A stretch of 64,000 nt of DNA from Escherichia coli (GCF_024502345.1 NZ_JALDNN010000001.1), one strand, 5' to 3'. Positions 1-28,890 are shown, counted from the stretch's first letter. Program-made: numbers and translations. Notes: generated from the letters alone by a model not told the origin.

Positions 1-468
1 CTTCACCGAAGACCTTCAGCCCGGTGGAATCAATTACCAGGTGTGCGATTTCACCCCGGGTGGGCGTTTTGAAACTGACGTTAACCGACTTTGCCCGCCT
101 GCTGACACAGCTGTAATCCGGGCAGCGTAGCGGAACGTTCATCAGAGAAAAAATGGAATCAATAAAGCCCTGCGCAGCGCGCAGGGTCAGCCTGAATACG
201 CGTTTAATGACCAGCACAGTCGTGATGGCAAGGTCAGAATAGCGCTGAGGTCTGCCTCGTGAAGAAGGTGTTGCTGACTCATACCAGGCCTGAATAGCTT
301 CATTATCCAGCCAGAAAGTTATGGAGCCACGGTTGATGAGGGCTTTATTGTAGGTGGGCCAGTTGGTGATTTTGAACTTTTGCTTTGCCACGGAACGGTC
401 TGCGTTGTCGGGAAGATACGTGATCTGATCCTTCAACTCAGCAAAAGTTCGATTTATTCAACAAAGCC
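1..468 (-). mobile_element. IS903-like (IS5 family) insertion sequence, partial: terminal inverted repeat plus N-terminal part of the transposase gene; element continues past the window start
   Basis: Minus-strand translation of 1..~400 reads ...TFAELKDQITYLPDNADRSVAKQKFKITNWPTYNKALINRGSITFWLDNEAIQAWYESATPSSRGRPQRYSDLAITTVLVIKRVFRLTLRAAQGFIDSIF...TRGEIAHLVIDSTGLKVFGE, recognised as IS903 transposase; terminus ...CAGCAAAAGTTCGATTTATTCAACAAAGCC ends at about 468 and matches the IS903 inverted repeat as I recall it. Confidence 0.85.
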
Positions 469-3396: not shown

Positions 3397-4146
3397 ATGG
3401 CTACCTACCGACACGACCCTGATCTTGAATTTCTGCGCCACTGCCATCGTGACGATCTGGATTTACTGGTTTCTGTGCTTATCTGCGATCCGAAAGACGG
3501 ACTGGCACGCATCACGGAAACGCTGACCTATGATCCTCAGTATAAAAAACACAAGCCCAACCACCCGCGCTACTGGGATGCCATTGCCGCCGAGGTTCAG
3601 ACGTTTGGGGCGAACAGCTTTGCCACGCTGCTCCGCTGGGGTAAAGGGGTGCTGTACCGGGAAATTCTCACCGATGCCTGCGATAAAATGAAGGTGAACT
3701 ACAACAACAAATCCAGTGTTGAAACCATTGAAATGAATCTGCTGATGAAGATCCTGGAGAAAAGTCTTGAGAAGATGACGCCTGACCAGCTAAAGACCGT
3801 GGCGGAAGAATTGCAGACAGGCTACAGCAACCCCACGCCGGAGTTGCTGACCATGGCAATCCAGGCGGGGATAAAAACATCCGGGTTTGCGGCCTATCAG
3901 ATGGCACTTGTTGTCACAAATGGTGTGGCGAAAGCCCTGTTAGGCAGAGGGCTGACCGTTGCAGGAAATGCCATGCTGACGCGTACCATGGGCGCTTTTG
4001 CCGGTCCCGTGGGCTGGGTGCTCAGTTCTCTCTGGCTGCTGATTGATTTAGCCGGTCCCGCATACCGGGTGACGCTACCATCCTGCATTTTTATTGCCTA
4101 CATGCGCCAGAAGCATCTTTATTCACCTGAGAATACTGACGTTTAG
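3397..4146 (+). CDS. YaaW-like (UPF0174 family) protein
   Basis: N-terminus ...DPDLEFLRHCHRDDLDLLVSVL... and overall length resemble E. coli YaaW as I recall it; glycine-rich hydrophobic C-terminal segment. Confidence 0.6.
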   Translation: MATYRHDPDLEFLRHCHRDDLDLLVSVLICDPKDGLARITETLTYDPQYKKHKPNHPRYWDAIAAEVQTFGANSFATLLRWGKGVLYREILTDACDKMKVNYNNKSSVETIEMNLLMKILEKSLEKMTPDQLKTVAEELQTGYSNPTPELLTMAIQAGIKTSGFAAYQMALVVTNGVAKALLGRGLTVAGNAMLTRTMGAFAGPVGWVLSSLWLLIDLAGPAYRVTLPSCIFIAYMRQKHLYSPENTDV

Positions 4147-4190
4147 CACTTACATTTAAGGTATTCAGACTTTAAAAAACTTCAGAGGGC

Positions 4191-4205
4191 GGACAAATCC
4201 TGTCC
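4191..4205. promoter_or_regulatory. palindrome GGACA-N5-TGTCC (copy 2 of 3), candidate operator
   Basis: gcGGACAaatccTGTCCgc, 44 nt upstream of the ATG at 4249. Confidence 0.45.
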
Positions 4206-4248
4206 GCTACTGCTGGCATCATTTCCCGGCTAAATTCGGAAATGATGT

Positions 4249-4962
4249 ATGACGCTGATAACACAAGAAAACGAACATGACAGACTGGCAACCCGCCTTT
4301 CCATCATCCTGAGCCGTTTGTTTCAGGGTGAAAAGCTGCATATCGGGACGCTGGCAGAAGAATTTGGAGTGACGACGCGAACGCTGCGACGGGATTTCAA
4401 CGTCCGTCTGACCTACCTTGATATTGAACAGAGCAACGGCGTGTATCAGCTTGCCTCACATTACTTTCGTCGCCGCACGGAACGGGATATGAAGATACTG
4501 GCGAGGTTGCTGCATCTTGACCGTCTGTTACCCGCGATGGATGCCAAACTACTGAGCCTGATGCTTGACGGGGAACGTCCCTCGCCATACAGGATTATGC
4601 TACCGGAGCCGCGCCAGAAACCCACCCTTTTCGGTGATTTCAGCAGACTGACGCTCGCCATACTTAACCAGACCCAGGTGCGTATCAGAACCGACGAAAA
4701 CGTCAGCCATACCGTTCATCCCTACCGTCTGCTTTGCAGCCATGCGGAGTGGTTTCTTGCCGGATGTACGTCATCGGGCGTGTTCGTTATTTCCCTGTCC
4801 CGAATCAGGCTGGTTGAGGTATTACCGGATACAACGTTTGAGATCGATAACACACTCATTTCGCTGATTGAACAGTCTGACTTTATGGAAGCCTTACCCC
4901 ACATGAACATTATTCATCAGATAATGCATTACGGGAGTAAACAGACGAATAATCGTAATTAA
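4249..4962 (+). CDS. HTH transcriptional regulator, YfjR-like (DeoR-type HTH plus WYL-type C-terminal region)
   Basis: N-terminal HTH RLSIILSRLFQGEKLHIGTLAEEFGVTTRTLRRDFN; paralogous to the ORF at 47188. Confidence 0.6.
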   Translation: MTLITQENEHDRLATRLSIILSRLFQGEKLHIGTLAEEFGVTTRTLRRDFNVRLTYLDIEQSNGVYQLASHYFRRRTERDMKILARLLHLDRLLPAMDAKLLSLMLDGERPSPYRIMLPEPRQKPTLFGDFSRLTLAILNQTQVRIRTDENVSHTVHPYRLLCSHAEWFLAGCTSSGVFVISLSRIRLVEVLPDTTFEIDNTLISLIEQSDFMEALPHMNIIHQIMHYGSKQTNNRN

Positions 4963-5393
4963 AATCACAACATATTATTAGTGATGATTAAATCACATTA
5001 ACATGATAAGTGAGAAAGTTATGATTATCGATAAAGAATACGCACTTGTAAATGCAACAGCAAGACTTAACACTGACCTGAGGGATTATGAATATGAAAT
5101 AAACAACGCCGCCATCATAACATTTGGCAATGACCTCATTGAGGTAATCGTATATCAGTTCAGCTTTGTCATCAGCATCAGGGCAGAGGGTGAAAAAATA
5201 AAGCACGGCCTACTTGTTAACTTCGGTAAAAATATAGCAAGACAGGTTTCATCACTTTGTGCATCCGCAATGCGAGTCTACCCGAATGAAAAACACAAAC
5301 CGAGCCGTCAGCTTTTCCATTGCATAAATTAGTTTGTGCAAAGACTGTACTACCGACACGCAATAAATTAAAATAGGCCAGCTAATATAACAT

Positions 5394-7271
5394 ATGAGGT
5401 TTATGATGGCTGGCCAGTATGAAAAAGCAATAACGATAAAACAAGCGATAGATTCAATTAATTTACGCCACTATCTTCTGCCTGCAATTCAGAGGAAGTT
5501 CGTCTGGAGCAGCAGTCAAATATGTTTGCTGTTTGATTCCATCATGCGAGACTACCCGATAAACTCTTTCATGATGTGGGATATCCGTAGTGCCAGTATT
5601 AAAAATGATTACAAATTCTATGAATTCCTGAAAGAATACTGTCAGCGATTTAATGAAGAAAACCCCTGCGTAGCAACAAATGCTGGATTTCATGATTTCA
5701 AGGCGGTGATTGATGGTCAGCAGCGTCTCACATCATTATATATTGGATTGTGTGGAACGTATGCGTATAAACAGCCCCGGGTGTGGTGGCCTTCGGCACA
5801 GGATGATCGCATCCTGCCGCCCAGAAAGCTTTACGTCGATTTAACAGCGCCACTTAATTCAGACGATGAGCTCATGATGAAGTATAACTTCAGGTTCCTG
5901 ACCGACAAGCAATACGCTGATTCACTTACAGACAACAAGCATCACTGGTTCTGCCTGCACGAAATATTCAAATACGAGCAACATGATTCGCCTGATGATA
6001 TTTTATTTAACGTTGTCGTACCAGAACTCGAAAAAAGAGGACTCATTTCCAGTGAATTTTCCAGAAAAACATTACTGAGACTTTATACAAAAATAAGAAC
6101 TGAGAACATCATCCACTACTTCAATGAGAGTAGTCAGGATATTGACCATGTGCTGGATGTTTTCATACGCACGAACAGCGGGGGGACAAAACTTGAGTTC
6201 TCCGACTTACTGATGTCAATAGCGGTAGCGCACTGGCAGGGTGATTTCAGAAGAGAACTGGATGAACTGACAAAAAACATTTATCAGAATAATGAAATGG
6301 GGTTTTATATTGAAAGAGACTGGTTCTTAAAAACCAGCCTGATGCTTATTGACTCTGACGTCCGGTTCAAAGTAAAAAACTTCACTTCAGAGGAGGTCGG
6401 TAAGATACAACAACAATGGTCTGAAATAAAATCCTGCATCAAGGAGACTTTTATTCTTATCAGGCGATTCGGCATCAATCCACAGTCTTTGATATCTAAA
6501 AATGCAGTCATTCCTGTGGTCTACTGGCTTTACAAAAAGCAAACCAGTGGACATCCATTATATACAACGATTAACCTCCTGAATAAAAACCACAATGAAC
6601 GCTCAGTAATTAGCCAGTGGTTTTACATGGTACTTCTGAAAGGGATCTTTGGAAGCCAGGCAGATGCGCTACTCACGAGTATCAGAGATGTAATGAAAAA
6701 TAGTCTTTCAGATATTCACTTTCCTCTTGAAAAGATTATTGACAGATATAAAGGCTCGAATAAAGACCTCAGATTTGACGACGAATACATCGAAAGCCTT
6801 CTCAATATCAGATATGGCGAAGGTCGTTGCCGCGCACTATTGCATCTTCTGTTCCCTGAAATGAATCCGACCGAGGTGTTTCATATTGATCACCTTCACC
6901 CAAGAAATCACTTCTCAAAGAAATATCTTGAAAAATTAGATTATGTTGCGAACTCACCAGAGAACCTCAGCTTTTATGAAAACCCGGAACACTGGGACAC
7001 CATACCTAATCTTCATTTACTGAATCATTCTCAGAATATAAGTAAACAGGATACTTCCCTGAAACAATGGCTATCTCAGCCATCAAACAACTATTCGCCA
7101 TCAATGCTGTTAGTTTCAGATGAAAATATTGAGTTCAGTCGCTTCCCGGAATTCTACAATGAACGAAGAAACGCCCTGAAGCAAAGACTACTGAATCGGG
7201 TATTTCTTACAACAAAAATAGATTCATCACCATCCACAATCGATACGGATGAAGAAATTCTCACCGACTGA
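5394..7271 (+). CDS. DUF262/DUF1524 protein, GmrSD-like putative type IV (modification-dependent) restriction endonuclease
   Basis: N-terminal DUF262 hallmark ...AVIDGQQRLTSL... (DGQQR motif); C-terminal His-rich HNH-like region ...FHIDHLHPRNHF...; sits directly upstream of hsdM. Confidence 0.75.
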   Translation: MRFMMAGQYEKAITIKQAIDSINLRHYLLPAIQRKFVWSSSQICLLFDSIMRDYPINSFMMWDIRSASIKNDYKFYEFLKEYCQRFNEENPCVATNAGFHDFKAVIDGQQRLTSLYIGLCGTYAYKQPRVWWPSAQDDRILPPRKLYVDLTAPLNSDDELMMKYNFRFLTDKQYADSLTDNKHHWFCLHEIFKYEQHDSPDDILFNVVVPELEKRGLISSEFSRKTLLRLYTKIRTENIIHYFNESSQDIDHVLDVFIRTNSGGTKLEFSDLLMSIAVAHWQGDFRRELDELTKNIYQNNEMGFYIERDWFLKTSLMLIDSDVRFKVKNFTSEEVGKIQQQWSEIKSCIKETFILIRRFGINPQSLISKNAVIPVVYWLYKKQTSGHPLYTTINLLNKNHNERSVISQWFYMVLLKGIFGSQADALLTSIRDVMKNSLSDIHFPLEKIIDRYKGSNKDLRFDDEYIESLLNIRYGEGRCRALLHLLFPEMNPTEVFHIDHLHPRNHFSKKYLEKLDYVANSPENLSFYENPEHWDTIPNLHLLNHSQNISKQDTSLKQWLSQPSNNYSPSMLLVSDENIEFSRFPEFYNERRNALKQRLLNRVFLTTKIDSSPSTIDTDEEILTD

Positions 7272-7474
7272 ACGTTCAGCCCCGATAGTATTGGGGCTTC
7301 AGTATTTATCATCAGCGCAACGTTTCTACTGGCCTGGCTGAAAGAGCATTGGCTACACAACCGGGCAAACGAACTCTCAGTGCAACGTATGACATACAAA
7401 GCCTGTCATCAATATGAAATTGCGATAAAATCGGGCCAATAACAGTACTTAAGAATCATACAACAGGATACAAA

Positions 7475-9031
7475 ATGACAAGCCTTCAGCAGCGTGCAGA
7501 GCTACACCGTCAAATCTGGGCCATTGCCAATGATGTCAGAGGCTCCGTAGATGGGTGGGATTTTAAACAGTATGTACTCGGTGCACTTTTCTACCGCTTC
7601 ATCAGTGAGAATTTTTCCAGCTACATGGAAGCAGGGGATGAGAGCATACATTATGCAGCACTTGATGACAGCATCATTACCGATGACATCAAAGACGATG
7701 CCATCAGGACTAAAGGCTATTTCATCTACCCGAGCCAGCTGTTCTGCAACGTTGCCGCTAAAGCGAACACCAACGACAGGCTGAATGCTGATTTAAACAG
7801 TATCTTCGTCGCTATAGAAAGCTCTGCCTACGGCTACCCGTCAGAGGCCGACATCAAAGGCCTGTTCGCCGATTTCGATACGACCAGCAATCGACTGGGG
7901 AACACAGTTAAAGACAAAAACAGCCGTCTTGCCGCGGTTCTGAAAGGGGTTGAAGGGTTAAAACTTGGTGACTTCAACGAACATCAGATTGACCTGTTCG
8001 GTGATGCCTATGAGTTCCTGATTTCTAACTATGCCGCAAATGCCGGTAAGTCAGGCGGTGAGTTCTTTACACCGCAGCACGTCTCCAAGCTGATTGCACA
8101 ACTGGCTATGCACGGGCAGACCAGCGTTAACAAAATCTACGACCCGGCAGCGGGTTCCGGCTCACTGTTGTTGCAGGCGAAAAAACAGTTTGATAACCAC
8201 ATCATCGAAGAAGGCTTTTTCGGTCAGGAAATCAACCATACGACCTATAACCTGGCGCGTATGAACATGTTTTTGCACAATATCAACTACGACAAGTTTG
8301 ATATCAAGCTGGGTAATACACTGACTGAGCCGCACTTCAGAGATGAAAAACCGTTTGACGCCATCGTATCTAATCCACCGTATTCGGTGAAATGGATTGG
8401 CAGCGATGACCCGACGCTGATTAACGATGAACGTTTTGCCCCGGCTGGCGTTCTGGCCCCCAAATCCAAAGCTGACTTTGCGTTTGTATTACATGCACTG
8501 AACTATCTTTCTGCCAAAGGTCGTGCTGCGATTGTCTGCTTCCCGGGTATTTTTTACCGTGGCGGCGCAGAGCAGAAAATCCGTCAATATCTGGTCGACA
8601 ATAACTATGTCGAAACCGTGATTTCACTGGCACCGAACCTGTTCTTTGGCACCACCATTGCCGTCAATATTCTGGTGCTGTCTAAACATAAAACGGATAC
8701 CAAAGTTCAGTTTATTGATGCCAGCGAATTATTCAAAAAAGAGACTAACAACAATATCCTGACCGATGCCCATATCGAACAGATTATGCAGGTATTTGCC
8801 AGCAAGGAAGATGTTGCTCATCTGGCGAAATCTGTCGCGTTTGAGACCGTTGTCGCTAATGACTATAACCTGTCGGTGAGCTGCTATGTAGAAGCGAAAG
8901 ATAACCGCGAAATTATCAATATTGCTGAGCTAAATGCAGAGCTTAAAACTACGGTTAGCAAAATCGACCAGTTGCGTAAAGATATTGATGCGATTGTGGC
9001 TGAAATTGAAGGCTGCGAGGTGCAGAAATGA
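7475..9031 (+). CDS. hsdM: type I restriction-modification system, N6-adenine DNA methyltransferase subunit HsdM
   Basis: 518 aa; NPPY motif ([10 protein letters not shown]); AdoMet-binding region [10 protein letters not shown]; stop overlaps the hsdS start (ATGA). Confidence 0.95.
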
Positions 9032-10200
9032 GCGAGTTGAGTTATCTGGAAAAATTGCTGGATGGGGTTGAGGTTGAGTGGAAATCATTGGGAGATGTTG
9101 TAAATTTTCAGCGCGGAAGGCGGCTCGTAAAATCTCAGTTAGAAACCAGAGGTAAATATGCGGTTTACCAAAACAGCATGACACCACTCGGTTACTATCA
9201 TGAGTATAATGTCGCAGCTCAATCTTCGTTCATTATCTGTGCGGGTGCAGCCGGTGAAATTGGTTATAGCGAAAATGAATTTTGGGCTGCCGACGATGTT
9301 CATTTCGCAATCACACCAGAATATATAAATGACAGGTTTTTGTTTCATTTTTTGTTGACGCAAAAGAATAAAATTTCAGGACAAGTACGCCGTGCCAGTA
9401 TTCCGCGTCTCTCAAAGTCAGTAATTGAAAAACTTGAATTCCCCATCCCCTGCCCGGATAATCCGGAAAAGTCCCTTGCCATCCAGTCTGAAATCGTTCG
9501 GATTCTGGATAAATTTACTGCACTTACCGCTGAGCTTACCGCTGAGCTTAACATGCGTAAAAAACAGTACAACTACTATCGCGACCAGTTGCTGAGTTTT
9601 GATGAGGGTGAGGTTGAGTGGAAGGCTTTGGAGGAAGTCTCAACTTTTGCTAATGGAAAGGGGCATGAAAAAGACATATCAGAAGACGGTAAATATATTG
9701 TTGTAAACTCTAAGTTTATATCTACCAATGGCGAAGTCGCCAAGTTATCAAACAAACAGCTATGCCCTCTTTTTAAAGACGATATTCTTTTGGTTATGAG
9801 TGACCTGCCCAATGGCAAAGCACTTTCAAAAACATTTATTGTTGATGAAGATCATAAATACACTTTAAACCAACGTATTGGTGGAATTACAGTAAAAAAC
9901 AGTAATGAATTACTCCCTAAGTTTTTGCACTATTTTTTAAATAGAACCCCGCAATTGCTGAAACATGACAATGGTGTTGATCAAACAAATTTGCGTAAAG
10001 GTCAAATACTTGAAGTAAAAATACCAATAATTTCACTCATCAAACAAGTTCAGATCGTTGAAACTCTTGATAAATTCGATACTTACACTAAGTCGATTTC
10101 AGAAGGCCTCCCGCGCGAAATCGAGCTGCGCCATAAACAGTACGAGTACTATCGTGATTTATTGTTCAGCTTCCCGAGACCAGAAACCGCCAGCAACTGA
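9028..10200 (+). CDS. hsdS: type I R-M specificity subunit HsdS (type IC-like)
   Basis: Two target-recognition domains separated by a conserved central region with the TAEL repeats (LTAELTAEL) and a related C-terminal repeat (...[14 protein letters not shown]). Confidence 0.9.
9523..9550 (+). repeat. 12-bp direct repeat CTTACCGCTGAG x2 (plus partial CTTA) in the hsdS central spacer region
   Basis: Read directly: cttaccgctgag cttaccgctgag ctta, encoding LTAE-LTAE-L. Confidence 0.9.
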
Positions 10201-10316
10201 CGGACCATTGATACCGGCAGGGTTTGTTCTCACCCGCCCGGTATCAGGCTTTAAGAATGCCGGAAGATGCTTCTGATACCCTTCCGGAATTTGCCAGATG
10301 ACGCACAGGATGCACC

Positions 10317-13300
10317 ATGACACAACAGATACACACCATTGCTGAATCCAATAACTTTATCGTCCTTGATAAATACACCAAAGTTCTGGAGAACGGCGAC
10401 AGCTACCAGAGCGAATCGGATCTTGAGCGGGAACTGATTCAGGACCTTCTGAATCAGGGCTATGAATTTATATCCGTTAAGTCACCGACAGCGATGCTGG
10501 CGAATGCACGGGACCAGCTTCAGCATCTTAATGGTGTGGTGTTTAACGAAAGTGAATGGCGGCGCTTCGCAGAGCAGTATCTGGACAGCCCCAGTGACAG
10601 CAGCCTGGACAAAACTCGTAAAATCCATATCGACTATATCTGTGATTTCACGTTTGATGACGGTCGTCTGGAAAACATCTATCTGATAGATAAAAAGAAC
10701 CTGCTGCGCAATAAGGTGCAGGTCATTCAGCAGTTTGAACAGACCGGCTCACACGCTAACCGTTATGACGTCACCATTCTGGTTAACGGCCTGCCACTGG
10801 TGCAAATCGAACTCAAAAAGCGCGGCGTGGCTATTCGTGAAGCCTTTAACCAGATACACCGTTACAGCAAGGAAAGCTTTAACAGCGACAACTCCCTGTT
10901 TAAATACCTGCAACTGTTTGTGATATCTAACGGAACCGATACCCGGTACTTTGCCAGTACCACTAAGCGGGATAAAAACAGCTTTGATTTCACCATGAAC
11001 TGGGCGAAGTCGGATAACACTCTGATTAAGGACCTGAAGGACTTTACCGCCACCTTCTTCCAGAAACATACCCTGCTGAATGTTCTGTTTAATTACAGCG
11101 TGTTTGACAGCAGCCAGACTCTGCTCGTCATGCGCCCCTATCAGATTGCCGCCACTGAGCGAATCCTCTGGAAAATTAACAGCTCATTTAAAGCGAAGAA
11201 TTGGTCAAAACCCGAAAGCGGCGGGTTTATCTGGCATACCACCGGGTCAGGCAAAACCCTGACCAGTTTTAAGGCTGCACGACTGGCAACCGAACTGGAC
11301 TTTATAGACAAAGTCTTCTTCGTGGTCGACAGAAAAGACCTTGATTACCAGACAATGAAGGAGTATCAGCGCTTTTCTCCGGACAGCGTCAACGGTTCGG
11401 ATAATACAGCAGGCCTCAGAAGAAACCTGGATAAGGACGATAACAAAATCATCGTCACAACCATTCAGAAACTCAATAACCTGATGAAAGCCGAAGCTGA
11501 CCTGCCCGTCTATCAGCAGCAGGTAGTGTTTATCTTTGATGAGTGTCACCGCAGCCAGTTTGGTGAGGCCCAGAAAAACCTCAAAAAGAAATTCAGACGC
11601 TTTTATCAGTTTGGTTTTACCGGTACGCCTATTTTCCCGGAAAATGCACTGGGGGCAGAAACCACAACCAGCGTGTTCGGGCGTGAGTTACATTCTTACG
11701 TCATTACTGATGCGATTCGTGATGAAAAAGTACTGAAGTTTAAGGTGGACTATAACGATGTCCGCCCACAGTTTAAGTCTCTTGAAACGGAAACAGACGA
11801 GAAAAAACTCAGCGCGGCTGAAAACCAACAGGCATTTTTGCACCCCCTGCGTATCCAGGAAATAACGCAATACATTCTCAATAACTTCCGGCAGAAAACA
11901 CACCGAACCTTCCCGGGAGCTAAGGGCTTTAACGCCATGTTAGCAGTTAGCAGCGTGGACGCGGCGAAAGCTTATTACACGACGTTTAAAATGCTACAGG
12001 AAGAAGCAGAGAAGAAATCTGGCAGCTATAAATGCCTTCGGGTGGCAACCATCTTCTCCTTTGCTGCAAATGAAGAGCAAAGCGCCATTGGTGATATTAC
12101 TGACGAAAGCTTTGATACCAGTGCAATGAACAGCAGCGCGAAGGAATTCCTGGATTCAGCCATTGATGACTATAACAATCACTTTAAAACCAATTTCAGC
12201 ACCGACAGTAACGGTTTCCAGAACTACTACCGCAATTTAGCTCAACGAGTGAAAAATCAGGATATTGACCTTCTCATCGTGGTGGGAATGTTCTTGACTG
12301 GCTTTGATGCCCCGACGCTTAACACTCTTTTCGTTGACAAAAACCTCCGTTATCACGGCCTGATGCAGGCATTTTCCCGCACAAACCGTATCTATGATGC
12401 CACCAAAACCTTCGGCAATATCGTGACTTTCAGGGATCTGGAGCGTCCGACCATTGATGCCATCACACTATTTGGCGACAAAAACACCAAGAATGTGGTG
12501 CTGGAAAAAAGCTACGAAGAGTACATGCAGGGCTTTACCGATGCGGCAACCGGTGAGGCTAAACGAGGTTTTATGGCTGTTGTTTCGGAGCTGGAGCAGC
12601 GCTTCCCTGACCCTGCCAGTATCGACAGTGAAAAAGAGAAAAAAGCCTTCGTCAAACTGTTTGGTGAATATCTGCGGGCAGAAAACATCCTGCAAAACTA
12701 TGATGAATTTGCCACGCTGAAAGCCCTGCAGAAGGTTGATATTAGTGACCCGGAAGCGGTAGAAACCTTTAAAGCAGAGCACTATGTGGATGATGAAAAA
12801 TTTGCTGAATTACAAACCATTCGTCTCCCGGCAGAACGTAAAGTTCAGGACTATCGCTCAGCATACAATGATATCCGGGACTGGCAGCGACGCGAAAAAG
12901 CATCAAACGACAGGGATAAATCAACCACAGACTGGGATGACGTGGTGTTTGAAATTGACCTGCTGAAGTCGCAGGAAATTAACCTGGATTACATCCTTGG
13001 TCTGATTTTCGACCACAATCGTCAGAAAAAAGGTAAAGAAGCCCTGACTGAAGAGGTCAGACGCTTAATCCGCTCAAGTCTGGGCAACCGTGCCAAAGAA
13101 GGTCTGATTGTTGACTTTATTCAGCAAACTAACCTTGATGACATGCCGGACAAGGCCAGTATCATTGATGCATTCTTTACCTATGCTCAGCGTGAACAGC
13201 AACGGGAAGCAGAGGCGTTGATTAAGGAAGAAAACCTCAATGAAGAGGCTGCAAGGCGCTATATCCGCACATCACTAAAACGGGAGTATGCCACCGAAAA

Positions 13301-13433
13301 TGGGACGGAGCTAAATGAGACGCTACCAAAGCTCAGTCCGCTGAATCCTCAGTACAAAACGAAAAAGCAGACTGTATTCCAGAAAATTGGGGCATTTATC
13401 GAAAAATTTAAAGGGGTTGGAGGACACCTCTAG
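10317..13433 (+). CDS. hsdR: type I R-M restriction subunit HsdR (SF2 helicase/translocase plus nuclease)
   Basis: 1038 aa; Walker A ([10 protein letters not shown]) and DEAD-box motif II ([10 protein letters not shown]). Confidence 0.95.
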
Positions 13434-13654
13434 ATGTCAGATAAAAGAACAATGCGCTACCGCAATTTATGGGTAAGATTGTATCTTTTAACCTGCATCA
13501 GACCTGTTATGATCGATGAGGCGCTGGTTAATGTTAATGCTAACTGGATGAGTTTTAATCGCTGATTCAGACAATTAGCGTCCAGAACTCACAGAAACCA
13601 GTGCTTGATTTTGGATGGTAAAGTGCTGAACGGACGTATCACAGGAGAATGCTT

Positions 13655-13993
13655 ATGAGCGTAACTATAAAAGACGATCGACTCCGTACCATCGCTACCT
13701 TTGACGGTAAAACCCTGAAAGACGACCGGCTCAGGACCATCGCAACGTTTGACGGTAAAACCCTGAAAGACGACCGGCTCAGAACCATCTCAACTTTTGA
13801 CGGTAAAACCCTGAAAGACGACCGACTCCGCACCATCGCTACCTTTGATGGCAAGACCCTGAAAGACGATCGACTCCGCACCATCGCAACATTTGATGGT
13901 AAAACACTTAAAGACGATCGACTCAGAACCATCGCGACAGTTAATGGTAATGTTAGTATTGTTGTTTTGGCGTTTGCTGCTCGGCTATTTTAG
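13655..13993 (+). CDS. small repeat protein: five 16-aa tandem repeats (KDDRLRTIATFDGKTL) and a hydrophobic C-terminal tail
   Basis: Copies differ almost only at synonymous codon positions in this frame (for example Arg as cgt, agg, aga, cgc), which argues for real coding sequence; AGGAGA 7 nt upstream of the ATG at 13655. Confidence 0.5.
   Translation: MSVTIKDDRLRTIATFDGKTLKDDRLRTIATFDGKTLKDDRLRTISTFDGKTLKDDRLRTIATFDGKTLKDDRLRTIATFDGKTLKDDRLRTIATVNGNVSIVVLAFAARLF
13670..13939 (+). repeat. 48-bp tandem repeat, about 5.6 copies
   Basis: Direct inspection; units begin AAAGACGA(C/T)CG(A/G)CTC... Confidence 0.9.
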
Positions 13994-14270
13994 GGCTAAG
14001 AGCCTATCTCAACAGAGATTAATACTTTACCCAAAAGATATAATATCAGTATCTAAAAGCCTGCACCGTCTGATTTTTAGTCATTGAATCGCGAGAACGG
14101 GAGATAATTTCTCTTCTATGGGTATAGGCTCATAATGGTAGGATTCTGGTAGCTTCGAAACGCCGTATTTAAGCAATACTTAAGTCATGAAGAACCAAAC
14201 TTAAACATTTTTCTCAAGGTAAACCAGTAAAAAACTGTTAGTGCTGATGGATCGTTTGGGCTCTTTTAAA

Positions 14271-14319
14271 GGGATTGAAAATCCCCGTGTCCTTGGTTCG
14301 ATTCCGAGTCCGGGCACCA
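14271..14319 (+). tRNA. tRNA-Phe 3' fragment (anticodon stem to CCA), not a complete gene; likely an island attachment-site remnant
   Basis: GGGATTGAAAATCCCCGTGTCCTTGGTTCGATTCCGAGTCCGGGCACCA matches the 3' two-thirds of enterobacterial tRNA-Phe (GAA anticodon) as I recall it; no matching 5' acceptor or D arm upstream. Confidence 0.7.
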
Positions 14320-14516
14320 AATTCATATCAACGGACCTCCACGGAGGTCCGTTTTTCGTTTCAGAACGCCACAATTTAAGCGTTCTGCCTCCAAATCAAT
14401 TCTACCGAACTCAACCAGATTCCCCCCACATCAACCCCATTGTGTGGGTATAATTGCGGGTATACCCCAGTTCGACAGAATTTGTACCCTCTTTAACGCA
14501 TTCAGAAGGCTGAACT

Positions 14517-15782
14517 ATGGCACTGACTGACGCAAAAATCCGGGCTGCAAAGCCCACTGACAAGGCTTATAAACTCACTGACGGGGCCGGCATGTTCCTG
14601 CTGGTTCATCCTAATGGTTCCCGTTACTGGCGTCTCCGTTATCGTATTCTGGGTAAGGAGAAAACCCTGGCACTTGGTGTGTATCCGGAAGTTTCTCTCT
14701 CCGAAGCTCGTACAAAACGGGATGAGGCCCGAAAACTGATTTCGGAGGGGGTTGACCCTTGCGAACAGAAAAGAGCTAAAAAAGTAGTCCCTGATTTACA
14801 ACTCTCTTTTGAACATATTGCACGACGCTGGCATGCCAGTAATAAACAATGGGCACAATCACACAGCGATAAAGTACTCAAAAGCCTCGAGACACACGTT
14901 TTCCCCTTTATCGGCAACCGGGATATCACAACACTCAGTACCCCGGACCTGCTTATCCCTGTTCGTGCTGCAGAAGCTAAACAAATTTATGAAATCGCCA
15001 GTCGTCTGCAGCAAAGAATATCTGCTGTAATGCGTTATGCCGTACAGTCTGGCATCATCAGATATAACCCGGCTCTGGATATGGCTGGTGCATTGACCAC
15101 GGTAAAACGCCAGCATCGCCCTGCTCTGGATCTTTCACGCCTGCCTGAACTTCTGTCGCGTATTGACGGTTATAAAGGCCAGCCTGTCACCCGACTGGCA
15201 GTTATGCTGAATTTACTGGTTTTTATTCGTTCCAGTGAACTCAGATATGCCCGCTGGTCTGAAATTGATATTGACAATGCCATGTGGACTATTCCAGCCG
15301 AACGCGAACCTCTGCCAGGCGTAAAATTTTCATACCGGGGCTCCAAGATGCGAACACCACATCTTGTGCCACTCAGCCAACAGGCTGTAGCCATACTGGC
15401 AGAACTTCAGACATGGGCAGGTGAAAATGGTCTGATCTTTACGGGAGCACATGACCCACGTAAACCAATCAGTGAAAACACCGTAAATAAAGCCCTGAGG
15501 GTTATGGGGTATGACACAACCCAGGATGTCTGTGGTCATGGATTCCGGGCGATGGCATGTAGTGCATTAATAGAATCAGGTTTGTGGTCCCGCGATGCTG
15601 TGGAACGCCAGATGAGCCATCAGGAGCGTAATGGTGTACGTGCTGCGTATATCCATAAAGCCGAACATCTGGAAGAACGTCGACTTATGCTACAGTGGTG
15701 GGCCGATTTTCTGGATGCAAACAGAGAAAGATTTATCAGTCCATTTGAATATGCAAAGATTAATAATCCATTAAAACAATAA
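14517..15782 (+). CDS. int: P4-type tyrosine integrase
   Basis: 421 aa; N-terminus MALTDAKIRAAKPTDKAYKLTDGAGMFLLVHPNGSRYWRLRYR is characteristic of P4-like integrases; lies about 200 bp downstream of the tRNA-Phe fragment. Confidence 0.9.
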   Translation: MALTDAKIRAAKPTDKAYKLTDGAGMFLLVHPNGSRYWRLRYRILGKEKTLALGVYPEVSLSEARTKRDEARKLISEGVDPCEQKRAKKVVPDLQLSFEHIARRWHASNKQWAQSHSDKVLKSLETHVFPFIGNRDITTLSTPDLLIPVRAAEAKQIYEIASRLQQRISAVMRYAVQSGIIRYNPALDMAGALTTVKRQHRPALDLSRLPELLSRIDGYKGQPVTRLAVMLNLLVFIRSSELRYARWSEIDIDNAMWTIPAEREPLPGVKFSYRGSKMRTPHLVPLSQQAVAILAELQTWAGENGLIFTGAHDPRKPISENTVNKALRVMGYDTTQDVCGHGFRAMACSALIESGLWSRDAVERQMSHQERNGVRAAYIHKAEHLEERRLMLQWWADFLDANRERFISPFEYAKINNPLKQ

Positions 15783-19445: not shown

Positions 19446-19709
19446 ATGAAGAAGCGTTTTTCCGACGAACAGATCATATGTATTCTCCGCGAGGCCGAAG
19501 CTGGCGTTTCTGCCCGTGAGCTCTGCCGTAAGCACGCCATTTCCGACGCCACCTTTTACACATGGCGTAAGAAGTATGGCGGTATGGAGGTGCCTGAGGT
19601 TAAGCGCCTGAAGTCGCTTGAGGAAGAGAACGCCAGACTCAAGAAGCTGCTTGCCGAAGCCATGCTGGATAAAGAGGCGCTTCAGGTGGCTCTTGGGCGA
19701 AAGTACTGA
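19446..19709 (+). CDS. IS3-family transposase OrfA (HTH)
   Basis: [49 protein letters not shown]... Confidence 0.85.
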
Positions 19710-19732
19710 CGACAGACCAGAAGCGGGAAGCC

Positions 19733-20566
19733 GTGATGTTGATGTGTGATGCGACCGGTCTGTCGCAACGTCGTGCCTGCAGGCTTACAGGTTTATCCCT
19801 GTCGACCTGCCGCTATGAGGCTCACCGTCCGGCTGCTGATGCGCATTTATCAGGGCGCATCACTGAGCTGGCACTGGAGCGCAGGCGTTTTGGCTACCGT
19901 CGTATTTGGCAGTTGCTGCGCCGTGAAGGGCTTCATGTTAATCATAAGCGCGTGTACCGGCTTTATCACCTCAGTGGCCTGAGCGTAAAACGCAGAAGAC
20001 GTCGTAAAGGGCTGGCAACAGAACGTCTGCCGCTGCTCCGTCCGGCGGCGCCCAATCTGACCTGGTCGATGGATTTCGTCATGGACGCACTTTCCACCGG
20101 TCGCAGGATCAAGTGTCTTACCTGCGTCGATGATTTCACAAAGGAATGCCTGACGGTCACTGTTGCCTTTGGGATTTCAGGCGTTCAGGTCACGCGTATT
20201 CTGGACAGCATTGCACTGTTTCGAGGCTATCCGGCGACGATAAGAACTGACCAGGGGCCGGAGTTCACTTGCCGTGCACTGGATCAATGGGCCTTTGAGC
20301 ATGGTGTTGAGTTGCGCTTAATCCAGCCGGGCAAGCCAACGCAGAACGGATTTATTGAGAGCTTTAACGGACGATTTCGCGATGAATGTTTGAATGAGCA
20401 CTGGTTCAGCGATATCGTTCATGCCAGGAAAATTATTAATGACTGGCGGCAGGATTATAACGAATGCCGCCCGCACTCCACGCTGAATTATCAGACACCG
20501 TCTGAATTTGCAGCGGGCTGGAGAAAGGGTCATTCTGAGAATGAAGATTCCGACGTTACTAACTGA
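19733..20566 (+). CDS. IS3-family transposase OrfB (DDE integrase-like catalytic domain)
   Basis: ...[10 protein letters not shown]...[50 protein letters not shown]... Confidence 0.85.
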
Positions 20567-20812
20567 GTGTTGTATCTAATCGTGGGGGCAGGTCACTCGA
20601 CTTGGTTCCATTAAAAACCATGAAGTTGATATAGGGTCAAGATTTTATACGATATACACATCAAGCATCTTGCATGAGTCGCACTGACTGACCCGGGTTA
20701 GTTACCATCATATTCTTTATGGTTGAGACCATACGGAAATCAGTGAATTAAAAATATTTATTCATCCAAAACACAAATGGTTTTAAGAAAGCCTAATGCC
20801 CTTCTTGTAAAA

Positions 20813-21082
20813 TTATTCAAGATAGTCAAGTATGTTTTTTATATTGTCAATTAAGGCGACATGCAGGTCAGGGTCATCACATTCATCTGAATGGCAATAG
20901 GAAATATGTTGAAGTATAATTCTTTTTTTGAATTCACTAACTGTACACTCCAACTCATACACCGACCGTACGATATCAATACAAGGTTCATCATCGATTA
21001 AAAAATCCTGCATTTTATTATACTTATCAGTCAGATCTTCTATCATAGAAATTAATACGGGGTCATTAACTAACATTGGCAT
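20813..21082 (-). CDS. hypothetical small acidic protein (89 aa)
   Basis: ORF 20813..21232 trimmed to the ATG preceded by AGGAGA; AT-rich; no family recognised. Confidence 0.35.
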   Translation of the reverse strand: MPMLVNDPVLISMIEDLTDKYNKMQDFLIDDEPCIDIVRSVYELECTVSEFKKRIILQHISYCHSDECDDPDLHVALIDNIKNILDYLE

Positions 21083-21470
21083 ATCTCTCCTCATAATCTG
21101 AAAGTAAAGATGGACACAGCGCTGATAAATTCCAATTCCCTTGCTTGCGGTACCGACCGGGAGGAAGATGAAACTTGTTTTTAAAAGCTCTCGTGAAAGT
21201 TTGTTGCGAATTAAAACCATACTGAAGTGCAATGTCTAGGACTGTTCTGGAAGTCAATTTCAGATCAATCGCAGCACATGATAATCGACGAGCACGAACA
21301 TATTCACCCAGCGCAACACCGGTCGTCTGTTTAAACAAACGTTGAAAATGCCATCGTGAATACCCAGACTTCTCAGCAATAAATTCTACTGGCAAGGTTG
21401 TATTCAATGAACTTTCAACCCACTGCAAAATATCTTTGACAACACTTTCAGAATATTTCCTGGTGTCCAT
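21066..21470 (-). CDS. AraC-family transcriptional regulator of the MarA/SoxS/Rob type
   Basis: ...KSGYSRWHFQRLFKQTTGVALGEYVRARRLSCAAIDLKLTSRTVLDIALQYGFNSQQTFTRAFKNKFHLPPGRYR aligns in my recollection with MarA/SoxS dual-HTH domains. Confidence 0.7.
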   Translation of the reverse strand: MDTRKYSESVVKDILQWVESSLNTTLPVEFIAEKSGYSRWHFQRLFKQTTGVALGEYVRARRLSCAAIDLKLTSRTVLDIALQYGFNSQQTFTRAFKNKFHLPPGRYRKQGNWNLSALCPSLLSDYEERYANVS

Positions 21471-21562
21471 TCTCTCCCCCCAAACCATATTCTATGAATA
21501 TATTCAAACCAGAATACGGTCTCTGAGTCTGTCATCCATGAAGAACTCAGGGACCCAACTCT

Positions 21563-24064
21563 TTATTTTCGTAATAACCTCAGGCCATTTGCCACAACCA
21601 GAAGACTGGCACCAACATCAGCAAATACAGCCATCCACATAGTTCCCATTCCCATGAGCGTGAGTACAAGGAATACGGCTTTAATACCTAGAGCGAGGCT
21701 GATATTTTGCACGAGTAAGCTGTACGTTTGTCGGGATAATTTTACAAAGGCTGGGATTTTACGCAGGTCATCATCCATTAAGGCTACATCTGCAGTTTCA
21801 ATCGCCGTATCAGTACCCATTGCGCCCATAGCAAAACCGATATCAGCTGCAGCCAGAGCCGGTGCATCATTGATACCATCACCAACCATCCCAGTGATTC
21901 CAATCCGTGAATGCTCTTCAACTGCACGATGTTTATCTTCTGGCAATTGATTCCCTCGAGCCTCATCGATTCCAACCTGAGATGCGATTGCTTTAGCTGT
22001 ATGTGGGTTATCACCAGTCAGCATAATAGTTTTAACGCCAAGTTCATGAAGTTGTTCAATCGCTTCACGGCTGCTGTTTTTAACAGTATCAGCAACAGCG
22101 AACAACCCAAGCACTTGCTTACCATCATTGAGTAAAATAACTGTTTTACCCTGGCTTTCCAGCCTTTGTACTGTTGCTTTAATCTCTGATGGACAATTAA
22201 AGTGTTCTTCAGTCAAACGCAGGTTACCAAGGTAAAAATCCTTACCTGTAATCGCGCCATGCACACCTCGCCCAACAATCGCTTCAAAGCTGTCAACATC
22301 CTGCTTTTTCAAATCAGCAGAAGCATTCACAATTGCCAGTGAAACAGGGTGATCAGAGTAACTAGCGAGACTAGCTGCAGTAGTACGAACTTCACGCTCG
22401 CTCCACCCATTGAATACCATTACGTCGGTTTGTACTGGTTTCCCATAGGTAATAGTTCCTGTTTTATCCAGCGCAAGGGCTTTTAGCTTACGTCCCTGCT
22501 CAAGATAAACACCGCCTTTAATGAGAATCCCTTTGCGAGCAGCTGCAGTAAGTCCACTAACAATCGTTACTGGCGTAGAAATAACCAGGGCACATGGACA
22601 CGCAATGACAAGCATAACTAAAGCTTTATAGATCCACTCCTGCCATGTTCCTGCCCCAAACAATGGTGGCAATACAGCAACCGCAACAGCAATACCCATA
22701 ACGACGGGGGTATAAATCTGGGAAAAGCGGTCAACAAAACGTTGTGTAGCTGCTTTGGCGCCTTGCGCCTGCTCAACGGCATGAATGATGCGAGCAAGGG
22801 TTGTATTATTTGCAGCTGCAGTGACTTTATATTCAAAAGAGCCTGACTGATTTATTGTTCCAGCAAATACAGCATCGCCCGCAATTTTATCGACAGGCAT
22901 ACTTTCACCTGTAATTGGAGCTTGGTTAATGGTGGTTTGGCCTTTGACGATTTCTCCGTCGAGACCAATTCGTTCACCTGGTTTTACCCTGACAATACTG
23001 CCCGGTTGTACGCTACTGGCGTCAACTTCCTGCCATGTTCCATCAGCTTGTTGGACCATTGCAGTTTCAGGAGTCAGGTTCATCAGGGAACCTATTGCAT
23101 TTCTGGCTCTATCAAGTGATTTGGCTTCTATCAGCTCGGCAATGGTGAATAACACCATAACCATCGCCGCTTCTGGCCACTGCCCAAGGACCAAAGCCCC
23201 AGTAACGGCAATACTCATTAGTGCATTGATATTCAAGTTGCCATTGCGAATCGAAATCCAACCTTTTTTGTAGGTTGTCAGACCACAAGAAAGCACTGCT
23301 ATCAAAGCCAACCCAGCTTCTAGCCAGTCAGGCATATCAGCCCAGTGCATCACTTCGGCTGCAAGAGCAGCTACGCCAGCAAGAGCTAATGGCCACCAGG
23401 GCTTTTTTTTCTCCTGGGTATTTTTCTTGCCGCTAGTATTATCAGAGACTTCTGGCGCGAATCCCAACGAGCGAATTGCAGCCATGATAGCTTCAAGCGA
23501 ATCCGGTGTATGGGTTACAGTCAAAACACGCTGCATCAGGTTGAAATCAAGCTCTTTAACAGCGCTCATTCCACCCAGTTTCTTTTTGATAAGATTTTCT
23601 TCAACAGGACAATCCATCTGCATAATGCGAATTTCTGTCCGTAATCCACCAGCCACAACCTGCGAGCCCCCTAGGCTACTCAATTGTTCTGGAGCAGCGG
23701 AGCAACAATCCCCCTCATGGCCGTGATCGTGGCCTTCATGAGAATGCTCTTGCGCGGCATGAGCATGGTTACATCCCTTATGATTATGCTCATCATGCGA
23801 ATGCCCTTCGCCGCCATGGCTATGGGCATCATGATTATGGCCTTCATGGTTATGGCCTTCATGGTTATGACCTTCATGGGAATGATCATCACTGCATTTC
23901 TTGTGATTATGAGCCTGCTGATCATGTGCATGATCATTTGCTTTATGTGATTCACCAGTATTCTTAACCCGGAGTCCTGTCCCTAAATTGAACGTTTCAC
24001 AGCAACTAGCCGCTTCGTCTCCTGCAGGGTTTTTGCTATTTTTTACACCACCACTCATTTTCAT
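21563..24064 (-). CDS. cadA: heavy-metal translocating P1B-type ATPase (Zn/Cd/Pb-type, CadA/ZntA-like) with His-rich N-terminus
   Basis: 833 aa; N-terminal HEGHNHEGHNHEGHNH repeats; CPC membrane motif (IACPCALVIS); phosphorylation motif DKTGT; [10 protein letters not shown] hinge. Confidence 0.9.
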   Translation of the reverse strand: MKMSGGVKNSKNPAGDEAASCCETFNLGTGLRVKNTGESHKANDHAHDQQAHNHKKCSDDHSHEGHNHEGHNHEGHNHDAHSHGGEGHSHDEHNHKGCNHAHAAQEHSHEGHDHGHEGDCCSAAPEQLSSLGGSQVVAGGLRTEIRIMQMDCPVEENLIKKKLGGMSAVKELDFNLMQRVLTVTHTPDSLEAIMAAIRSLGFAPEVSDNTSGKKNTQEKKKPWWPLALAGVAALAAEVMHWADMPDWLEAGLALIAVLSCGLTTYKKGWISIRNGNLNINALMSIAVTGALVLGQWPEAAMVMVLFTIAELIEAKSLDRARNAIGSLMNLTPETAMVQQADGTWQEVDASSVQPGSIVRVKPGERIGLDGEIVKGQTTINQAPITGESMPVDKIAGDAVFAGTINQSGSFEYKVTAAANNTTLARIIHAVEQAQGAKAATQRFVDRFSQIYTPVVMGIAVAVAVLPPLFGAGTWQEWIYKALVMLVIACPCALVISTPVTIVSGLTAAARKGILIKGGVYLEQGRKLKALALDKTGTITYGKPVQTDVMVFNGWSEREVRTTAASLASYSDHPVSLAIVNASADLKKQDVDSFEAIVGRGVHGAITGKDFYLGNLRLTEEHFNCPSEIKATVQRLESQGKTVILLNDGKQVLGLFAVADTVKNSSREAIEQLHELGVKTIMLTGDNPHTAKAIASQVGIDEARGNQLPEDKHRAVEEHSRIGITGMVGDGINDAPALAAADIGFAMGAMGTDTAIETADVALMDDDLRKIPAFVKLSRQTYSLLVQNISLALGIKAVFLVLTLMGMGTMWMAVFADVGASLLVVANGLRLLRK

Positions 24065-24090
24065 TGCCTCATCTGTTAACTATACTGACG

Positions 24091-24121
24091 ATTAAAGACC
24101 CTAATCTAACTAGAGGGTCAA
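24091..24121 (-). promoter_or_regulatory. MerR-type promoter/operator (divergent region between the ATPase gene and cadR)
   Basis: Minus-strand TTGACC (-35), 19-bp spacer containing the dyad GACCCT...AGGGTC, then TTTAAT (-10); the 19-bp spacer with internal dyad is the MerR-family signature. Confidence 0.6.
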
Positions 24122-24139
24122 GCGCATAAGGGGGGAGGC

Positions 24140-24592
24140 ATGAAAATTGGTGAATTGGCCCGTAAGGCGGATTGTCCGGTGGAAACTATTCGGTACTATG
24201 AGAAAGAAGGATTACTTCAGGCTCCATTAAGAGATATTGAAAATAACTATCGCCGTTACAACAATACTCATCTGGAAAAGTTATTATTTATCCGACGCTG
24301 CCGCTCTCTTGATATGACCCATGAGGAAATACGTGCATTGCTACTGGCAATGAATAATCACGGTAAAGACTGTGGCCCCATTGATGCAATAATCAGTGCC
24401 CATCTCACTCATGTTCAGCATCGTATTAAAGAATTAATAGCCCTGGAAATACAACTCAAAGAACTTAATAACTATTGCAGCTCAGACCGGAGCGTGGACG
24501 AATGCGGGATAGTACAGAAATTGACTGCTGATGAAGAGAATGGTGATCTTCCTTTAACCGTACCAACTGACCACTTGGGGGGTGTGCATTAG
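24140..24592 (+). CDS. cadR: MerR-family metal-responsive regulator, CadR/PbrR-like
   Basis: MKIGELARKADCPVETIRYYEKEGLL...; divergent from the P-type ATPase gene. Confidence 0.8.
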   Translation: MKIGELARKADCPVETIRYYEKEGLLQAPLRDIENNYRRYNNTHLEKLLFIRRCRSLDMTHEEIRALLLAMNNHGKDCGPIDAIISAHLTHVQHRIKELIALEIQLKELNNYCSSDRSVDECGIVQKLTADEENGDLPLTVPTDHLGGVH

Positions 24593-24681
24593 TGGTGTGC
24601 GCTTATAAGTTGATTAGACTGATGGCGTAACACAAGCCCATACAGCTTTGTGCTACGCCATCATGCCCTTAAAATAAGGGG

Positions 24682-25146: not shown

Positions 25147-25159
25147 AGCTCCCCTTTTC

Positions 25160-27655: not shown

Positions 27656-27691
27656 GATGTATTTCTCATCGTTATGGTCAGATAAAGAACA

Positions 27692-27722
27692 ACCTTAAGG
27701 CTTACCATCGTGGGAAGGTCAA
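27692..27722 (-). promoter_or_regulatory. putative CueR-controlled copA promoter
   Basis: Minus-strand TTGACC followed by a spacer with partial dyad (CTTACC...GGGAAG) resembling the E. coli copA operator as I recall it; approximate. Confidence 0.35.
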
Positions 27723-27840: not shown

Positions 27841-28845
<1,005 letters not shown>

Positions 28846-28890
28846 TCAGGCCTCTGGTGATGCACTATCAATTTAGGAGGGAGAATCATA

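Follow-up and report, generated by a model that had tools for sequence, protein, structure and literature searches.

What is the protein encoded directly upstream of a type I restriction-modification (R-M) operon in Escherichia coli, and does it act together with that operon or on its own? This question was raised by a 64,000-nucleotide (nt) stretch of E. coli DNA (GCF_024502345.1, NZ_JALDNN010000001.1), which was analysed at its full length and is called the window below. An earlier note on this DNA had placed a GmrSD-like gene directly 5' of hsdM-hsdS-hsdR on the same strand, and the Pfam GmrSD_N and hsd domains confirmed that arrangement; the coordinates it gave for the four open reading frames (ORFs) agreed exactly with a six-frame ORF list (Table 1). 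The results suggested that the 625-amino-acid (aa) product of the first gene is, quite probably, a type IV (modification-dependent) endonuclease of the BrxU branch that works autonomously as a single polypeptide and would complement the type IC HsdMSR complex encoded next to it.

Identity of the nuclease

The domain search of the 625-aa protein, combined with a structure-based alignment, placed it firmly in the GmrSD superfamily, in the BrxU/HEC-05 branch; HEC-05 corresponds to BrxU according to Payne et al. (bioRxiv 10.1101/2024.01.29.577857). The PADLOC HEC-05 model (PDLC04151) matched the nuclease over its full length with 767 bits (E 3.9e-231), and BrxU itself scored 776 bits. When the PDB sequences were searched with phmmer, BrxU (7p9k/7p9m) was the sole return, at E 3.5e-99 over nuclease residues 9-600, and BLASTP against the BrxU copy of plasmid p1658/97 gave 35% identity and 54% positives over 603 columns. 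No NCBIfam model matched the nuclease protein.

The two domains expected from the earlier note, DUF262 and DUF1524, were reached in different ways. DUF262, a ParB-like nucleoside triphosphatase (NTPase) domain, was found directly by Pfam above the gathering score, and its motifs were located as QR (residues 33-34), LLFDS (45-49), of the BrxU type with the dimer-switch serine as S49, the previously noted DGQQR (107-111, nt 5712-5726) and FIRTN (257-261); the segment VIDGQQRLTSLY of the translation spans DGQQR. DUF1524 was not recovered by direct search: the Pfam GmrSD_C/DUF1524 model (PF07510) gave nothing at E<=10 in either the whole nuclease or its C-terminal half. After this null result the question was settled by aligning the protein with its family and with BrxU and by modelling its structure. 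Since GmrSD_C matched 35 of the 80 aligned full-length relatives (best E 1.1e-06), the C-terminal domain was taken to be a divergent DUF1524 that Pfam misses and that is reached transitively.

Within this domain, the HNH-like histidine cluster seen earlier turned out to be a His-Me finger. Residues 496-551 read FHIDHLHPRNH...IPNLHLLNHSQNISK and align with the DHIYP / N / N His-Me finger of BrxU, so that D499-H500, N539 and N548 stand against BrxU D474-H475, N509 and N518. A check of the alignment for loss of catalytic HNH residues thus found all of them present. An AlphaFold model built on the family alignment (predicted local distance difference test 92.2, predicted template modelling score 0.87) contained the elements of the finger as a strand at 496-500, a strand at 540-544 and a helix at 545-551.

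The residues on which BrxU depends were also kept. S42, Q101, R102, D474 and H475 are essential for BrxU defence (Picton et al. 2021, PMC8565348), and they correspond to S49, Q110, R111, D499 and H500 here, all of them unchanged. In an alignment of 80 full-length family representatives, Q33, W38, D48, S49, P55, W62, D107-R111, F257, R259, N261, L267, D499, H500, N539 and R591 were invariant; N548 was kept in at least 90% of the representatives, and the first residue of LFDS varied. The family itself is large, with at least 771 clusters at E<=1e-30 in an exhaustive search of 1.84 billion representatives.

When the model was compared with the PDB by Foldseek, the top match was BrxU (7p9k_A, E 2.4e-35, probability 1.0), followed by DndI and SspE. 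The TM-score of the BrxU match was modest (~0.5), which would fit the known domain-swapped, flexible BrxU dimer. The weaker matches, DndI (9jfl, E 2.5e-05) and SspE (6jiv, E 5.7e-04), share the DUF262-DUF1524 architecture, and specificity is known to vary within the superfamily (PMC12707154); both points would suit an enzyme that senses a backbone or non-cytosine modification, such as phosphorothioate (as SspE/DndI), 7-deazaguanine or modified thymidine, and nicks or degrades DNA on behalf of another modification system. We give this explanation a very slim chance. Sequence identity in the fold matches was 10-11% for DndI and SspE versus 34% for BrxU, the PADLOC match to SspE was marginal (5.2e-05 over 14 residues), and no ssp or dnd genes were seen among the ORFs and domains found in window 1-20 kb. 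Moreover, the nuclease carries the BrxU-type LFDS, which is absent from SspE, GmrSD and HEC-06 according to Payne et al. (bioRxiv 10.1101/2024.01.29.577857). An SspE-like assignment was rejected on the marginal PADLOC match and the low fold-match identity.

The translation start was also considered. A Shine-Dalgarno-like GAGG lies at 5396-5399, just 5' of ATG 5403 and 5406, RefSeq homologues are 621-622 aa long, and one copy has GTG in place of ATG 5394; translation therefore probably starts at ATG 5403 or 5406, giving a protein of 621-622 aa.

The type I operon and the junction with the nuclease gene

The three genes downstream of the nuclease gene encode a complete EcoR124-family (type IC) R-M system with a new specificity. 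HsdM matched the EcoR124II M protein (7bst_D) over its full length with 1133 bits and carries NPPY at residue 300, the N6-adenine motif, and DPAAGSGS, the S-adenosylmethionine motif I. HsdR matched EcoR124I HsdR (2w00) with 2121 bits over residues 1-1037. In NCBIfam the match of hsdM was at equivalog level and that of hsdR at subfamily level. HsdS was compared with EcoR124 HsdS (7bst_A), and the results showed that its N-terminal, central (with two TAEL repeats) and C-terminal regions are conserved and that its target recognition domains (TRDs) are divergent. The TRD regions, 9085-9439 and 9625-10052, did not align with other copies and differ from every copy compared (E. coli, Klebsiella, EcoR124), and the flanks and central region around both TRDs are ~95% conserved. 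This is the classic pattern of TRD swapping and implies a new recognition sequence, which must differ from that of EcoR124 because both TRDs differ.

As a BrxU-type nuclease adjoins a complete EcoR124-type system, two opposite modes of restriction, modification-dependent and modification-blocked, would be juxtaposed at this locus; this part of the earlier note holds at the level of homology. The substrate specificity, nucleotide dependence, transcript structure and defence phenotype proposed below are deduced from what is reported for BrxU (PMC8565348) and for BrxU/GmrSD in wild E. coli (PMC12373910). If the protein works as BrxU does, its DUF262 domain would bind and hydrolyse nucleotide via LFDS and DGQQR, and the nucleotide cycle would drive a dimer-to-monomer switch that licenses the His-Me finger (D499-H500, N539, N548). 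The finger would then cut DNA with modified bases, most likely the modified cytosines of T-even-like phages (5-methylcytosine, 5mC; 5-hydroxymethylcytosine, 5hmC; glucosyl-5hmC). The EcoR124-type HsdMSR complex would methylate adenine in its own bipartite target and cut DNA without that mark, so phages that escape type I restriction by hypermodified DNA could become substrates of the BrxU-like enzyme, and the two would provide complementary cover. The predicted HsdM mark is N6-methyladenine on a bipartite target; because this lies outside the reported modified-cytosine substrates of BrxU, the type I methyltransferase is not expected to sensitise host DNA to the nuclease.

The earlier note had described the nuclease gene as fused onto the operon. 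This wording did not survive, and a literal gene fusion was rejected, since hsdM starts only after a 203-bp spacer (7272-7474), in which a hairpin and a promoter-like site are found. The final codon and the stop of the nuclease gene overlap with the stem-loop, which reaches slightly beyond them, and a weak U-tract comes next. The structure may act as a weak terminator or stabilise the mRNA end. The terminator scan gave no call at this stem-loop, and no strong terminator was seen between the nuclease gene and hsdM. Upstream of the nuclease gene lies a leader that is presumed to carry the gene's own promoter, as a candidate only; the consensus promoter scan reported no strong site in it. We suggest that the nuclease gene and hsdMSR are probably expressed from separate promoters, independent of each other.

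Two further ORFs precede the leader. The regulator with helix-turn-helix (HTH) and WYL domains was present only in the genomic-island version of the locus and was missing upstream of the Klebsiella plasmid copies; it is a generic HTH-WYL regulator outside the conserved cassette described below. Its assignment as an orthologue of BrxR was tried and rejected (BLASTP against the p1658/97 BrxR homologue, E 0.15; no match among PDB sequences). A perfect 10-bp inverted repeat, CATCATTTCC-N11-GGAAATGATG at 4217-4247, ends 2 bp before its start codon and is a candidate autoregulatory operator, as in other WYL regulators of defence islands. For the small ORF that follows, no Pfam, PADLOC or NCBIfam match was found.

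Table 1. Features of the nuclease-hsdMSR locus and its right boundary, with positions in the window
Feature	Position	Strand	Details
HTH + WYL transcriptional regulator	4249-4962	+	237 aa; Pfam HTH_DeoR 2.3e-06, WYL 1.6e-04; PADLOC WYL 3.2e-15, full length
Small ORF	5003-5332	+	109 aa; RefSeq start near 5021; hypothetical protein in E. coli annotation
Conserved leader, ~200 bp	5190-5393	+	near-identical in island, plasmid and insertion sequence-flanked orphan copies; further upstream the copies diverge
Nuclease ORF	5394-7271	+	625 aa; six-frame ORF list; BrxU family (PADLOC HEC-05, GmrSD superfamily), putative type IV endonuclease
DUF262 / ParB-like NTPase domain	5439-6221	+	residues 16-276; Pfam PF03235 GmrSD_N, E 1.5e-32, above gathering score
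His-Me finger (beta-beta-alpha, HNH-like) of divergent DUF1524 domain	6879-7046	+	residues 496-551; D499-H500 (nt 6888-6893), N539, N548, K551
Stem-loop	7268-7302	+	RNA fold -15.1 kcal/mol, z = -2.46 versus shuffles
Promoter-like site CTGTCA-17-TAAAAT	7403-7431	+	44 bp 5' of hsdM; consensus match only, 9/12
hsdM, type IC N6-adenine methyltransferase subunit	7475-9031	+	Pfam N6_Mtase + HsdM_N; TIGR00497 9.1e-194
hsdS, specificity subunit	9028-10200	+	Pfam Methylase_S, two stretches
hsdR, type IC translocase/endonuclease subunit	10317-13433	+	Pfam HSDR_N, ResIII, SWI2_SNF2, T1R_D3-like, EcoR124_C
tRNA-Phe 3' 49 nt, attachment-site remnant	14271-14319	+	right island boundary
P4-type integrase gene of adjacent island	14517-15782		Pfam

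Linkage and spread of the cassette and probable autonomy of the nuclease

The extent of the conserved unit was defined by comparison with other replicons. Klebsiella IncFIB plasmids share only 5184/5192-13424 with the window, that is, the leader, the DUF262 gene, hsdM, hsdS (with variable TRDs) and hsdR. Their homology leaves out the HTH-WYL regulator and most of the 5003-5332 ORF; it starts at ~5184-5192, inside this ORF, so that only the 3' end of the ORF is common to the plasmid cassette. The region ~5190-13424 is thus a conserved 8.2-kb cassette found on tRNA-Phe-associated islands and on IncF-type plasmids. At a coverage of at least 80%, the DUF262-hsdM junction (6772-7974) was present in 71 complete E. 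coli genomes and 224 plasmids, mostly of Klebsiella, and the DUF262 gene itself in 114 E. coli genomes and, at a protein identity of at least 90%, ~264 plasmids. At least 80% of window 4000-14500 was carried by 39 complete E. coli genomes at ~96% identity, and in the E. coli copies examined the block sits on integrase-bearing islands beside cadC or the gss/yghU region.

Such tight linkage on one strand, with the junction kept in so many replicons and no strong terminator inside it, could also mean that the DUF262 protein depends on the type I complex and serves it as an accessory or guard. The nuclease would then be latent under HsdMSR and triggered when an anti-restriction protein such as Ocr, ArdA or a Stp-like protein disables the type I system. 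PrrC in the type IC EcoPrrI locus is a precedent for an embedded effector controlled by R-M. EcoPrrI is mentioned in PMC12707154. We regard this explanation as very unlikely, because the nuclease gene survives where the operon does not. Forty-three E. coli genomes contained the DUF262 gene without the hsdM junction, and in the two that were examined (W444 and 210221272; loci L086 and L087) the gene was intact and flanked by IS3 and IS1 insertion sequences, with hsdMSR gone. IS1 in these copies was inserted at ~window 7435, ~40 bp before hsdM and just 3' of the promoter-like site. Conversely, the DUF262 gene is missing beside related type IC operons on ~600 E. coli plasmids and on many chromosomes; the homology of these operons begins at the hsdM start codon, and their upstream neighbours are Phd/Doc, or McrBC together with a phosphorothioate-dependent nuclease. 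The nearest distant relatives of the nuclease are found in bacteriophage exclusion (BREX) loci and not beside type I genes, and proteins of the BrxU family defend on their own, as BrxU and HEC-05 protect when expressed alone (PMC8565348; bioRxiv 10.1101/2024.01.29.577857; PMC12373910). With its gene persisting on its own once IS1 had eliminated hsdMSR, and with its closest distant relatives inside BREX, we read the nuclease as an autonomous module.

Besides homology, motif conservation, fold, linkage and persistence without hsd, we observed selection on the protein. The ratio of nonsynonymous to synonymous substitutions (dN/dS) of the nuclease gene was 0.05-0.07, with the orphan copy included, and that of hsdM and hsdR was 0.065 and 0.03, respectively. 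As these values for the nuclease gene hold across copies in different hosts and replicons, they indicate purifying selection. In addition, copies of the protein from E. coli, Citrobacter, Cronobacter, Enterobacter, Serratia and Klebsiella show 97-99% conservation. The gene might still be a non-functional, hitch-hiking passenger, a decaying remnant without a role in defence, as damaged copies do exist: of 155 E. coli genomes that match the nuclease gene, 41 hold less than 80% of it, and in E. coli 23CRST042 (L002 7404-10049) the gene is split by IS1. We consider this highly unlikely in view of the low dN/dS, the conservation of the protein across six enterobacterial genera and the state of the copy in the window, which is an uninterrupted ORF with every invariant family residue.

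In 23CRST042, a 9-bp overlap at window 5868-5876 suggests an IS1 target duplication, and with W444 and 210221272 this strain illustrates that IS1 repeatedly erodes the cassette.

To place the cassette in the wider family, one genome per species was scanned, which returned 80 loci, 48 of them with a full-length homologue. The closest non-enterobacterial relatives (L006 6522-16461 and L007 8269-16572), which come from marine gammaproteobacteria (Thalassolituus, 66% identity) and Alcaligenaceae (one bacterium, 52%), are nested in BREX loci with pglX on one side and pglZ on the other. Because these closest homologues nest in BREX loci, the nuclease clade has moved between BREX and type IC neighbourhoods. 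The gene order of the window recurred independently in a Saprospiraceae locus (L011), where the BrxU-like gene is 3 bp 5' of hsdM-hsdS-hsdR, and in another locus (L031) the BrxU-like gene is nested between hsdM and hsdR. Few neighbours could be labelled when single HsdM/S/R and BREX protein sequences served as phmmer queries. A Pfam scan of the 82 immediately flanking ORFs found ResIII in 5, N6_Mtase in 3, PglZ, NERD, C5 methylases and resolvases in 2 each and a ThsA-type Macro domain in 1, plus housekeeping genes. With neighbourhoods this mixed, type I linkage as a family-wide rule was rejected. The family is a free-standing module that repeatedly docks beside methylation-based systems, and the tight type IC linkage is a property of the enterobacterial clade.

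Several points weigh against an autonomous, BrxU-type enzyme that complements type I restriction. The Pfam DUF1524 model failed on the protein itself, as described above. Four BrxU residues are changed here (R38 to L45, N485 to K510, N519 to I549 and E528 to Q558); in BrxU, two of these are dispensable and two cause only partial loss of defence (PMC8565348). At 35% identity to BrxU, the predicted modification specificity could differ. Type I genes were nearby in ~4-5 of the 48 full-length loci (L011, L031, L039, L051). Finally, the weak U-tract after the stem-loop and the 9/12 match of the promoter-like site leave room for co-transcription or functional coupling of the nuclease gene with hsdMS.

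Another possibility is that the BrxU-like enzyme and the EcoR124-type complex are functionally coupled; BREX and type IC hosts would then have passed the clade between them as a plug-in module against modified DNA, with host-specific adaptation. Coupling could come about by co-transcription from the leader, by sensing the inhibition of type I by anti-restriction proteins or by sharing the HsdR translocase. We hold this to be improbable.

Genomic setting, related systems and meaning

The earlier note had put the locus at the edge of a tRNA-Phe island. The junction itself stood, marked by a 49-nt tRNA-Phe 3' remnant, and no tRNA gene was found in the window by ARAGORN or by Rfam at the gathering threshold. 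From query position 72 onward, the remnant matched annotated tRNA-Phe genes at 100% identity, its Rfam tRNA score of 17.7 was below the gathering score of 29, and the exact 23-nt tRNA-Phe 3' end occurs once in the window, with 0 expected by chance. A strong terminator-like hairpin at 14330-14353 follows it. Because the remnant is followed by a P4-type integrase gene, it appears to mark the junction of two tandem tRNA-Phe islands.

Other features of the window were recorded as well. Directly 3' of hsdR, the ORF at 13649-13993 matched Pfam '5-fold beta-flower' and is kept in an E. coli island copy; counted by eye, it has ~5 near-identical tandem units of ~60 nt (KDDRLRTIATFDGKTL...). The left end of the island is truncated by an IS5-family transposase fragment (window 1-468), an IS1222/IS3-family frameshift element lies at 19676-19793 (Rfam, 156.6 bits), and a group II intron domain at 33910-33996 (Rfam, 64.9 bits) lies beside an ORF the size of a reverse transcriptase. 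The block at ~20596-33424 encodes heavy-metal P-type ATPases, a cation diffusion facilitator transporter and cueR, and is 100% identical to a 270-kb contig of E. coli strain 44, on which a DUF262 gene copy of 94.7% identity lies within a few kb of the metal block. This contig hints that parts of the window share a plasmid-type origin. A second defence cluster was found on the minus strand at 50676-61115, with a DrmD-like SNF2 helicase (PADLOC 1.7e-208), AbiD, an AbiU/AIPR-like protein, and a type III methyltransferase and restriction enzyme; it is 99% identical to chromosomes of avian pathogenic E. coli and again shows Abi genes nested within an R-M/helicase locus.

Among characterised systems, BrxU of Escherichia fergusonii pEFER (PDB 7P9K/7P9M) is the closest. 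The two proteins are collinear over their full length, with a DUF262 NTPase, a helical linker and a DUF1524 His-Me finger in both; they share LFDS, DGQQR, DHxxP and all experimentally essential residues and have about equal PADLOC scores. Both are encoded by a single gene on a mobile element, in the same orientation as an adjoining methylation-based defence system. BrxU is shorter (587 versus 625 aa, at 35% identity), and the arginine of its RLFDS is leucine here. Its gene sits inside a BREX operon between brxC and pglX, after BrxR, whereas the gene here lies upstream of a type IC operon.

GmrSD (E. coli CT596 / Eco94GmrSD) shares the superfamily, the domain order and the concept of a nucleoside triphosphate-stimulated nuclease for modified cytosine, and Eco94GmrSD likewise lies beside hsd genes, in the immigration control region. 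It is a distant branch without the BrxU-type LFDS (Payne et al.), set apart here by published description, and canonical GmrSD cuts only glucosylated hydroxymethylcytosine, whereas BrxU also cuts 5mC and 5hmC DNA.

Layered defence by a GmrSD-like type IV system and a type I system on a genomic island is also known from TgvAB of Vibrio cholerae VPI-2 and from RloF of the Campylobacter jejuni hsd loci (PMC11411939; PMC4619093). TgvAB consists of two proteins whose genes are embedded among those of the hsd system, and RloF has hsdS and hsdR as its neighbours on either side, whereas here one gene precedes hsdM at a 203-bp distance. In the sense of Payne et al. (2024) the gene is not 'embedded': its orientation is the same as that of the operon, but it lies upstream of the first hsd gene. 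True embedding was seen in relatives, in BREX at L006 and L007 and in a type I locus at L031.

On the type I side, EcoR124I/II (type IC, plasmid R124) has HsdR and HsdM that are nearly identical over their full length and the same order M-S-R; its HsdS shares the conserved regions and two TAEL repeats, and both TRDs differ. The locus had further been likened to the immigration control region of E. coli K-12 (hsdRMS-mcrBC-mrr), where type I also lies beside type IV. The comparison is valid as a functional analogy and not as membership. The K-12 region has a fixed chromosomal site, hsd genes of type IA/IB and McrBC/Mrr, whereas the locus here is a mobile cassette, also on plasmids, with type IC genes and a BrxU-like partner, and no McrBC or Mrr was seen among the ORFs examined in window 1-16 kb.

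The principle behind such loci is not new. Among the neighbours of GmrSD homologues, type I R-M domains are the most enriched, and the study that ranked them also pointed out RloF of the Campylobacter hsd loci (Machnicka et al. 2015, PMC4619093), BrxU and BREX form complementary defence layers (Picton et al. 2021, PMC8565348), and a GmrSD-like system inside a V. cholerae type I cluster restricts hypermodified phages (TgvAB study, PMC11411939). Both the association of GmrSD/BrxU proteins with type I, for which Payne et al. (2024) is a further source, and the rationale of complementary layers are therefore already published, and existing defence-finder models already detect the nuclease, which is itself uncharacterised. 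By homology and by analogy with BrxU, the locus would equip enterobacteria with a single compact and highly mobile cassette that acts on invading DNA whether it is unmodified or hypermodified. It is carried in several enterobacterial genera, in particular on hundreds of Klebsiella plasmids, and such a cassette would matter in practice where Klebsiella and E. coli are treated with phages (T-even-like phages, Ip-type inhibitors) and as a barrier to plasmid transfer.

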